Source: Escherichia phage NHEP10. Taken from it: DNA of 64,000 nt. The notes beneath the pieces are model-generated. The model did not search any database, was not told the DNA's origin, and saw only the letters and a program-made list of their open reading frames with translations. Made by a program: the position numbers and the translations under genes. Numbering within the stretch: the stretch's first letter is position 1; each line of letters begins with the position of its first letter. Where the stretch lies: sequence record PQ511148.1, one strand, 5' to 3'. Shown here piece by piece: positions 26,601 to 27,756 of the stretch.

Positions 26601-26946
26601 TGACGTTAACGACGTTTATATTCGTTCTGATATTCGTTGTAAATCGGAAATTAAGCTTATCGATAACGCACAAGAGAAATCTAAACTCTTAGGTGGTTAT
26701 ACTTATCTGCTTAAAAACCCCGTTACTGATGAAGTTAAACCGTCCGCCGGTTTAATCGCCCAGGAAGTTCAAAAAGTATTTCCTGAACTTGTTTCTGAAG
26801 ATAAAGAGACCGGATTGCTTCGTTTGAATTATAATGGTATTATTGGTTTAAATACTGCTACTATCAACGAGCATACTGACGAAATCAAGGAATTGAAATC
26901 TGAAATTGCTGAATTGAAAGCATTAATTAAATCATTGATAAAATAA
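23695..26946 (+). CDS. 37: long tail fibre distal subunit gp37, with C-terminal intramolecular-chaperone-like domain
   Basis: 1083 aa; synteny; last about 106 aa contain SDIRCK...GLIAQEVQ...coiled coil, typical of self-cleaving intramolecular chaperone domains. Confidence 0.9.
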   Translation: MATLKQIQFKRSKTAGARPAASVLAEGELAINLKDRLLFTKDDTGAIIDLGFAKGGNIDGNVIHTGNYNQTGDYTLNGTFTQIGDFNLKGIARVTRDIIAAGQIMTHGGELITKSSGTAHVRFHDLADRERGIIFSPANDGLTTQVLNIRVQDYKAGSESTFAFNGNGLFSSPEVFGWKSVSTPVIYTNKVITNKKVKDDYDIYSMADNVPLSESTTAINHLRVMRNAVGSGIFHEVKDNDGITWYSGDGLDAYLWSFTWSGGIKSSHSISIGLTPGNKDYSILGPSSIALGDNDTGFKWHQDGYFFTVNNGTKTFLSGPAETTSLRKMVMGYSVNGTDLTTPPTENYALATVVTYHDNNAFGDGQTLLGYYQGGNYHHYFRGKGTTNINTHGGLLVTPGNIDVIGGSVNIDGRNNASTLMFRGNTTGSSSVDNMTISVWGNTFTNPSVGNRKNVMEISDATSWMSYIQRLTTGEVEMNVNGSFESSGVTAGNRGVHTTGEISSGAVNALRIWNADYGAIFRRSEGSLHIIPTAYGEGKDGDIGPLRPFSLALDTGKVVIPDLDLSHTTFAANGFIKFGGHGAGAGGYDIQYVQAAPVFQEIDDDAVSKYYPIVKQKFLNGKSVWSLGTEIESGTFVIHHLKEDGSQGHTSRFNMDGTVNFPDNVLVGGGEAAIARNGNIFSDIWKVFTTAGDVTNIRDAIATRVSKEGDAMTGTLWINKDAAGIVLNPPLASDSSFIRSDTAGVNNWYIGKGGADNGLGFYSYVTQGGVYITNNGEISLSPQGQGTFNFNRDRLHINGTQWVAHKSGAWGDQWGLEAPIFVDFGSVSNDCYYPIIKGKSGITNEGYFSGVDFGMRRITNNWAQGIIRVGNQENGHDPQAIYEFHSNGTFYAPSLLKSNRVSAGGGDPAWGSPCIVLGDNDTGFLWEADGIFNAYANGQGVFSFRAGLAQTFGNVNFHCNAGMYVRDNIDVNDVYIRSDIRCKSEIKLIDNAQEKSKLLGGYTYLLKNPVTDEVKPSAGLIAQEVQKVFPELVSEDKETGLLRLNYNGIIGLNTATINEHTDEIKELKSEIAELKALIKSLIK

Positions 26947-26950
26947 TAAA

Positions 26951-26966
26951 AGGGCCTTCGGGCCCT
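26951..26966 (+). other. UUCG-tetraloop hairpin between 37 and 38 (no U-tract)
   Basis: agggcc-ttcg-ggccct followed directly by GGAGG SD of gene 38. Confidence 0.45.
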
Positions 26967-26976
26967 GGAGGTTTAT

Positions 26977-27756
26977 ATGGCAGTAGTAGGAATACCTGGT
27001 TGGATTGGGACTTCAGCCGTTGCTGAAACGGGTCAAAGATGGATGACGGCTGCTTCAAGGGAACTTCGTTTAGGAAACCCTTCATGGATGTCCCAATTCG
27101 CGGGCCGTTCAAGAGAAATAATTCATACACTTGGTGCAGACCATAACTTTAACGGGCAATGGTTCCGTGACCGTTGCTTTGAAGCTGGCGGCGCTCCTAT
27201 AGTGTTTAATATCACCGGAAATTTGGTATCATATAGTAAAGATGTTCCATTATTCTTTATGTATGGCGATACGCCAAATGAATATGTTACTTTGAATATT
27301 CATGGTGGAGTTCATATGTGGGGACGAGGTGGTAATGGTTCTGTAAACGGAAGCCCAGGCACAAATGGCGGTGACGTAATCCAAAATGATATCGGCGGAA
27401 GACTTCGTATTTGGAACTATGGCGTTATTGCATCAGGCGGTGGCGGTGGCGGTGCAGTGTCATTACAGAATAGCTGGGCTCCAAATGCTACAGCAGGTGG
27501 CGGTGGTGGTAGACCATTTGGCATCGGCGGAGGTGGCGTTAATTGGCCGGGTGGTAATGCTAGTTATGACGCCCCAGGCGGCGCCGGTTACACTTCCCAA
27601 TTCGGCGGAGGCAATGGTGGTGATGCTGGCGCTTGGGGTGGAGATGGATGGGGTAATCACTTATCTAGATCTGGCGGTGGTGCTCCTGGCAGAGCAGTAT
27701 TCGGAAGTTCACCGTCATGGGGTGCTACAGGCACAATCTACGGCTCCTGGATTTAA
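26977..27756 (+). CDS. 38: receptor-recognising adhesin gp38 (T2-type, glycine-rich motifs)
   Basis: 259 aa; multiple poly-Gly motifs ([33 protein letters not shown]) separated by variable segments, as in T2/Ox2-type gp38. Confidence 0.8.
27427..27700 (+). repeat. low-complexity GGY-rich coding repeat region (gp38 glycine-rich motifs)
   Basis: repeated ggcggtggc... tracts in DNA. Confidence 0.6.

Follow-up and report, generated by a model that had tools for sequence, protein, structure and literature searches.

A T2-type long-tail-fibre tip in Escherichia phage NHEP10: gp37 with a Peptidase_S74 intramolecular chaperone domain, predicted to be self-cleaving, and a glycine-rich gp38 adhesin

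The distal tip of the long tail fibre was studied in a stretch of 64,000 nucleotides from Escherichia phage NHEP10 (sequence record PQ511148.1; the whole stretch is hereafter called the window), with a focus on the 3' end of gene 37, encoding the distal fibre subunit gp37, and on the adjacent gene 38, encoding gp38. The source is a Mosigvirus-like T-even phage, and both genes belong to its long-tail-fibre operon (Table 1). Gene 37, ending in a chaperone domain of the cleavable type, is followed by gene 38 and the holin gene t, a layout also found in T2 and ten other phages. The 1.8 kb around this tip region share 98.7% DNA identity with Escherichia phage NHEP36, 94.8% with PHB12 (Mosigvirus), and 91–92% with several further Mosigvirus and Tequatrovirus phages. 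Comparison of the proteins gave 100% identity between gp37 and its NHEP36 counterpart, and gp38 shares 99.2% identity with PHB12, 98.8% with NHEP36, 98.1% with AlbertHofmann (Bas47, Mosigvirus), and 97.7% with AugustSocin (Bas38, Tequatrovirus); the chaperone tail of gp37 is near-identical in all four of these phages. GenBank records of the relatives label gp37 as 'long tail fiber distal subunit' and gp38 as 'adhesin tip for distal long tail fiber' or 'tail fiber protein; host specificity'. An earlier reading of the letters (the original prediction) had placed a gp37 with a self-cleaving C-terminus and a T2-type gp38 at this locus, and its coordinates and residue numbers (Ser978 at 26626, gp38 of 259 aa) proved to be exact.

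Table 1. Features of the tail-fibre tip locus and its surroundings in the window (ORF, open reading frame; AF2, AlphaFold2).
Feature	Position	Strand	Basis
Gene 37 (precursor of the distal subunit of the long tail fibre; 1083 aa, 116.9 kDa)	23695-26946	+	ORF, homology
Peptidase_S74 / intramolecular chaperone domain, gp37 residues 978-1083 (106 aa, 11.8 kDa), predicted autoproteolytic release	26626-26943	+	PF13884, 6F45_A, PHROG, Foldseek
Ser978 codon TCT, predicted catalytic serine, first residue of released domain	26626-26628	+	Invariance, homologue equivalence
Lys983 codon AAA, predicted general base of Ser-Lys dyad (i+5)	26641-26643	+	Invariance, spacing
C-terminal long alpha-helix, gp37 residues 1046-1082, predicted trimeric coiled coil	26830-26940	+	AF2, heptad pattern, homologues
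DVYIR, gp37 residues 973-977, predicted mature C-terminal strand and gp38 docking platform; predicted scissile bond after Arg977 (between 26625 and 26626)	26611-26625	+	Alignment to S16/fPS site
Gene 38 (adhesin of the T2 type at the tail-fibre tip; 259 aa, 26.3 kDa)	26977-27756	+	Next ORF after gene 37; Pfam, PDB, PHROG matches
Attachment domain at the N-terminus of gp38 (residues 1-42; contains Trp9, Trp22, Trp37)	26977-27102	+	Gp38_N match, alignment
Polyglycine-rich receptor-binding region of gp38	27319-27690	+	Conservation profile, alignment
Glycine-rich motifs of gp38 (segmentation of this study): residues 115-121 WGRGGNG, 153-159 SGGGGGG, 173-187, 210-216 GGGNGGD, 232-238 SGGGAPG			
Variable segments of gp38 (segmentation of this study): residues 122-130, 160-172, 188-209, 217-231			
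Intercistronic stem-loop AGGGCC-UUCG-GGCCCU	26951-26966	+	Folding -12.3 kcal/mol, structure kept in relatives
gp34	18004-21837	+	Long-tail-fibre operon
gp35, hinge connector	21846-22970	+	Long-tail-fibre operon
TATAAATA ahead of gene 36, matching the late-promoter consensus of the T4 type	22996-23003	+	Position and T4 late-promoter knowledge
gp36	23030-23686	+	Pfam Phage_T4_gp36
Holin t	27790-28461 as listed	+	Pfam Phage_holin_T

The 106-residue tail of gp37 begins with SDIRCK at residue 978. Aligned to Peptidase_S74 domains, a check suggested together with the original prediction, the tail alone matched positions 1–57 of the 58 positions of the Pfam profile PF13884 ('chaperone of endosialidase') with 52.3 bits (E 7e-14), and the search with full-length gp37 returned a match at residues 978–1033 with 46.3 bits (E 5e-12), the curated cutoff of this family being 22 bits. 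The match is far beyond chance. Comparison with sequences of known structure revealed similarity to the gp37 construct of phage S16 (PDB 6F45_A, E 7e-24), with the SD-R-K residues and the AGLIAQEV stretch conserved, and a weak match to the ICA domain of MyRF. Furthermore, in 25 PHROG families of tail fibres the tail matched the very C-terminal end, as is expected for a portable C-terminal module. A large protein search with the tail returned 21 short or fragmentary proteins, all of them carrying PF13884; these sufficed for an alignment and a model, but the full-length gp37 family was not returned by this search, which accordingly provides little information on diversity.

Two residues at the start of the domain, Ser978 and Lys983, stand five positions apart. 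The motif SDxRxK is invariant in the alignment of 13 phage gp37 tails (13/13, T2 and S16 included), and S, D, and K are present in every one of the metagenomic homologues covering this site, the fourth position being R or K. Ser-Lys dyads have been described as Ser1264/Lys1269 for T5 pb1 (PMC4690869) and as Ser587/Lys592 for MyRF, the latter equivalent to Ser911/Lys916 of endoNF (PMC8326128). Since Ser978 and Lys983 show the same spacing as in these three proteins, the dyad lies at the canonical i/i+5 positions.

An AlphaFold2 (AF2) model, built on the alignment of metagenomic homologues, reached predicted local distance difference test (pLDDT) values of 82–96 across most of the domain and of about 62 at its first residues. 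The terminal helix comprises model residues 99–135 (gp37 residues 1046–1082) with pLDDT values of 87–96, and L, I, V, or M occupy eight of the ten a and d heptad positions. This heptad pattern is consistent with the trimeric coiled coils into which the homologous helices of T5 pb1 (PMC4690869) and MyRF (PMC8326128) assemble. Foldseek comparison of the model with the PDB resulted in significant hits for the MyRF ICA domain (7DC3; E 1e-5, probability 1.00, template modelling (TM) score 0.51) and the K1F endosialidase chaperone (3GW6; probability 0.91–0.99) only, all other hits having E > 0.3. Five independent lines, namely sequence, catalytic residues, fold, coiled coil, and position, support the assignment of gp37 residues 978–1083 to the S74 intramolecular-chaperone domains. 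The earlier claims of an intramolecular-chaperone-like domain in the last approximately 106 residues and of a terminal coiled coil were thereby upheld, the former by agreement of PF13884, 6F45_A, the dyad, AF2/Foldseek, and PHROG, the latter by the predicted helix and its heptad pattern.

Two length classes can be distinguished among the aligned chaperone domains (window positions 26900–26943). The phage studied here, JS10, PE37, FB, and S16 possess an extended helix ending in ELKALIKSLIK, and the helices of T2, Lutter, and SYGD1 end about ten residues sooner.

For gp38, Pfam searches returned both GP38 (PF05268; positions 1–218 of 218, 278 bits, E 6e-83) and Gp38_N (PF21721; positions 1–40 of 40, 74 bits, E 8e-21). 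Among proteins of known structure, gp38 matched PDB entry 9V85 (E 4e-73), which represents the receptor-binding domain of PP01 gp38 (PMC12892980), and S16 gp38 (6F45_D, E 4e-49). The protein also matched PHROG 2056, annotated as 'host specificity' (E 4e-109). Trp9, Trp22, and Trp37 of the N-terminal domain are invariant in all 13 gp38 sequences aligned, including those of S16 and T2; PMC7917993 describes the N-terminal Trp residues of gp38 as prongs inserted into pockets of the gp37 tip.

Glycine accounts for 24.7% of gp38 overall, with 34.7% in residues 110–259 and 11% in residues 1–109, and forms the runs GGGGGG (154–159), GGGGG (174–178), GGGG (184–187), GGG (210–212), and GGG (233–235). 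When eight divergent gp38 proteins were aligned, conservation amounted to 0.88–0.96 in the glycine-rich motifs, to 0.42–0.49 in three of the four variable segments, and to 0.45–0.69 in the mixed block 188–209. The gp38 family has been described as a polyglycine sandwich consisting of five glycine-rich motifs and four hypervariable segments (PMC12032242, PMC12892980). Pfam, PDB, and the conservation pattern thus agree with the view that the gene next to gene 37 encodes a gp38 in which poly-glycine motifs separate variable segments, as had been proposed.

To distinguish the T2-type from the T4-type arrangement, both proteins were compared with their counterparts in the two reference phages. T2 gp37 (1341 aa) carries Peptidase_S74 at residues 1243–1300, and T2 gp38, with which the comparison advised in the original prediction was also carried out, has the same GP38 and Gp38_N pair as the gp38 studied here. 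T4 gp37, in contrast, has Collar and Phage_fiber domains without S74, and the Pfam search returned nothing for T4 gp38. Neither Collar nor Phage_fiber was matched by gp37 of the window in the Pfam search, and no similarity was found between gp38 of the window and T4 gp38 (E 2.2). Homology of gp37 to its T4 counterpart (34% identity) extends over residues 1–680, and no match was obtained past approximately residue 680. A T4-type tip was rejected on these three grounds: the missing Collar and Phage_fiber domains, a gp38 unlike that of T4, and the end of the T4 similarity near residue 680. T2 shares the domain set on both proteins and T4 does not, so the T2-type assignment made earlier stands.

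C-terminal processing of gp37 has been reported for several related proteins. In S16, gp37 is cut at DLNVS^SDRRIKK, the last 113 residues being autocleaved and the docking surface for gp38 being exposed, as outlined in PMC7917993 and PMC7289586. For Yersinia fPS phages, DVYIR^SD was predicted as the cleavage and docking site by alignment to the S16 site (PMC7917993). T5 pb1 is cut between Thr1263 and Ser1264, and the mature fibre lacks density for Ser1264 (PMC4690869); the cut of MyRF between Pro586 and Ser587 was shown by mass spectrometry (PMC8326128). Biochemical work showed that T2 and T6 gp37 are likewise cleaved and then capped by gp38, the processing of T2 having been reported in 1986 (PMC3157838). 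Among the aligned phages, [DN]VY[IV]R directly precedes SD in 12 of 13, T2 included (NVYIR), S16 having DLNVS instead. C-terminal processing of gp37 is therefore a legitimate inference for the phage studied here. Since S16, T5, and MyRF are cut before the serine, the predicted site is the Arg977–Ser978 bond, in front of the catalytic serine. The predicted mature gp37 would comprise 977 residues (105.2 kDa) and end with DVYIR, and the released fragment would have 11.8 kDa.

The original prediction had placed the cut after Ser978, which requires a correction by one residue. With a cut at that position, mature gp37 would terminate in the serine, and the architecture would otherwise be the same. 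phi29 is the only counter-example of this kind, the serine having been modelled on the mature side in weak density (PMC4690869), but the bonds cut in S16 (S^SDRRIKK), T5, and MyRF all precede the serine, and this variant is accordingly judged quite improbable. A more far-reaching alternative regards the S74-like tail as a non-cleaving remnant, with gp38 acting as an assembly factor only, as in T4, and gp37 itself contacting the receptor. None of the data contradict the reading of a functional, self-cleaving chaperone, but it has some limits. The AF2 model represents a monomer of a trimeric domain and aligns to known structures with TM scores of 0.4–0.5 and large root-mean-square deviations, the 31 residues upstream of the chaperone domain are unmodelled (pLDDT below 50), and cleavage, its site, and the stoichiometry were assigned to this phage by homology alone. 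In addition, the 'folding-sensor' Arg located 14 residues before the Ser (R897 in endoNF, R1250 in T5) has no clear counterpart in the gp37 alignment. Candidate sensors here, judged from the alignment, are R966 (−12) and R977 (−1), and S16 and JS10 have an Arg at −6; MyRF needs no upstream sensor Arg (PMC8326128). Against a remnant, neither the Ser-Lys dyad nor the core motifs show any loss or variation, gp38 is dissimilar to the T4 gp38 chaperone and matches solved receptor-binding adhesins over its full length, and gp37 lacks the Collar and fibre-repeat tip of T4. The remnant explanation is therefore considered extremely improbable.

Regarding the receptor, gp38 differs from Bas47 gp38 at five and from Bas38 gp38 at six residues. 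The primary receptor of both phages was determined experimentally to be OmpF (PMC8594841 and its supplementary table), T2 using FadL (PMC8594841), and closely related gp38 proteins have been found to use the same receptor (PMC12032242). With 98% identity to the gp38 proteins of these OmpF-dependent phages, the gp38 studied here most probably recognizes OmpF as well. A further point to be weighed on the opposite side is that three of the differences from Bas47 and Bas38 (S122T, S126N, and A219G) are located in variable segments, for which reason OmpF specificity is rated as probable rather than certain. Architecture and processing could be as described and this gp38 allele could nevertheless recognize a receptor other than OmpF: Ser122 and Ser126 reside in the first variable segment, Ala219 resides in the last one, and point mutations in the hypervariable regions of Ox2 gp38 changed receptor specificity (PMC12892980). 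However, only five to six of 259 residues differ, the same allele family is OmpF-dependent in two genera (Tequatrovirus Bas38 and Mosigvirus Bas47), and the sharing of receptors among related gp38 proteins argues in the same direction. A different receptor is thus unlikely, and OmpF is retained as the predicted one.

The locus showed a mosaic composition, which is known behaviour of the gp37/gp38 locus. The N-terminal domain of gp38 co-varies with the gp37 tail, one type comprising the window, the Bas phages, and bov10K1, and another comprising JS10, PE37, and FB. The variable region of gp38, in contrast, assorts independently of the N-terminal domain and the tail in the alignment: bov10K1 combines a tail and N-terminal domain of the window type with PP01-like loops, and JS10 a different N-terminal domain with window-like loops. 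At the DNA level, the window is identical to NHEP36 across approximately 900 bases, which take in the chaperone domain and the larger part of gene 38. Divergence from NHEP36 is confined to the last approximately 230 nt of gene 38 (27525–27756), where two to seven mismatches per 60 nt were counted and PHB12 is closer. This region takes in the C-terminus together with the last variable segment and resembles a small patch of recombination. That Ser122, Ser126, and Ala219 together with the divergent 3' patch of gene 38 reflect recent recombination or selection, shifting or broadening the receptor or the specificity for OmpF variants, appears quite improbable; if true, the phage would be a natural host-range variant and not a plain OmpF binder.

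Taken together, the distal tip is very likely a T2-type module consisting of a self-cleaving gp37 chaperone and a gp38 adhesin. According to this model, gp37 would be made as a precursor of 1083 residues, the last 106 of which form the Peptidase_S74 chaperone. The chaperone would trimerize via its C-terminal coiled coil and nucleate the folding of the preceding trimeric fibre. After correct trimer formation, Ser978, activated by Lys983, would cut the Arg977–Ser978 bond, the chaperone would leave, and a three-fold tip ending with DVYIR would be exposed. A single gp38 would then dock on this tip via its N-terminal domain (Trp9, Trp22, and Trp37) and present its variable loops on the conserved polyglycine scaffold to an outer-membrane protein, most probably OmpF. 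Cleavage, its exact site, the 1:3 docking, and the receptor are the steps that we infer from homologous systems; the domain identities, the catalytic dyad, the fold match, the pattern of glycine-rich motifs and hypervariable segments, the distinction between T2 and T4, and the near-identity to OmpF-dependent phages were observed in the data.

The arrangement is already known in detail, the exact alleles are present in GenBank, and the findings correspond to textbook T-even biology without anything conceptually new. The concept of gp38 as an adhesin dates from 1987, and the S74 mechanism was reported between 2007 and 2010. For the annotation of this phage, the value of the analysis is that gene 38, and not gene 37, is assigned as the host-range determinant, which is useful for host-range prediction in phage therapy or for tail-fibre engineering. 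The latter is concerned because the N-terminal domain of gp38 must match the DVYIR tip.

Signals in the surrounding DNA were also inspected. Three + strand matches to TATAAATA were found in the region, located just upstream of g34 (17962), g36 (22996), and t (27775). The match at 22996 probably drives a g36-g37-g38 transcript; since TATAAATA occurs in the whole window no more often than expected by chance, these promoters are assigned by position only. The intercistronic stem-loop is placed directly between the double stop codon of gene 37 and the Shine-Dalgarno sequence GGAGG of gene 38 (26967–26971). Its folding energy was not distinguishable from that of shuffled sequences (z −0.7), but it is judged to be real because the structure is kept at the same place with different stems and a UUCG or UUAG loop in T2/Lutter, JS10/FB, and PE37. 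It resembles the stable intercistronic tetraloop hairpins that have long been known from T4 transcripts. An ORF of 125 aa in another frame inside gene 38 (27386–27763, +) was rejected as a gene, as GGN-rich sequence explains it and no support was found.

Some further observations concern the neighbouring genes. The listed start of the holin gene (27790) lies only 8 nt past the TATAAATA match at 27775–27782, and related phages annotate a holin of 219 aa corresponding to the ATG at 27802 (MAAPK...), which is probably the true start. Residues 450–549 of gp37 (window positions 25043–25341) match Pfam Gp34_trimer (PF21446; 32 bits, cutoff 27), as do the gp37 proteins of T2 and T4, which suggests a domain of this type common to the proximal and distal half-fibres. 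Residues 58–131 of gp35 (window positions 22017–22238) gave a match to Pfam ILEI (interleukin-like EMT inducer, PF15711) that was barely above threshold (30.2 bits, cutoff 27).

Compared with known systems, NHEP36, PHB12, Bas47, and Bas38 carry effectively the same gp37/gp38 alleles, already deposited and annotated, from which gp38 of the phage studied here differs by a few substitutions in variable segments. T2 (AP018813), the historical type case, has the same Pfam set, the same g37-hairpin-g38-t layout, and a similar junction (NVYIR/SDIRLK, compared with DVYIR/SDIRCK here). It differs in its longer gp37 (1341 aa), in a chaperone domain of 99 aa without the last 11 helix residues found here (ELKALIKSLIK), in the variable segments, and in its receptor FadL. 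T4 shares the operon position, the homologous N-terminal approximately 680 residues of gp37, and the Gp34_trimer-like segment; however, the C-terminal part of T4 gp37 consists of Collar and fibre-repeat domains that bind the receptor, without S74, and T4 gp38, a non-structural chaperone according to the annotation note of NC_000866, is unrelated to gp38 of the window.

The gp37-gp38 structure of S16 was solved in 2018 by Dunne et al., as described in PMC7917993, PMC12892980, and PMC7289586. S16 (PDB 6F45) resembles the phage studied here in gene order and in a C-terminal S74 chaperone of gp37 with SDxRxK and a long C-terminal helix; its gp38 (E 4e-49) likewise has Trp prongs in an N-terminal domain for attachment, along with a beta-helix and a polyglycine sandwich. 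Differences concern the residues before the cut (DLNVS instead of DVYIR), the released domain (113 residues instead of 106), about six extra residues upstream of the cut in NHEP10, as implied by the alignment, the variable loops, and the receptor, being Salmonella OmpC for S16 and predicted to be OmpF here. More distant counterparts are K1F endosialidase (3GW6), T5 pb1, and MyRF (7DC3), which share the Ser-Lys dyad at i/i+5 with gp37. In these proteins, a beta 'donut' and a C-terminal trimeric helix are released after folding of the trimer, which is predicted for gp37 as well. The structural alignments to 7DC3 and 3GW6 showed only 12–20% sequence identity, and the chaperone domain comprises 106 residues here compared with 133 in T5. 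Whereas the tip itself is the binding or catalytic domain in K1F endosialidase, T5, and MyRF, a separate adhesin is predicted to cap the tip of the NHEP10 fibre after release of the chaperone.

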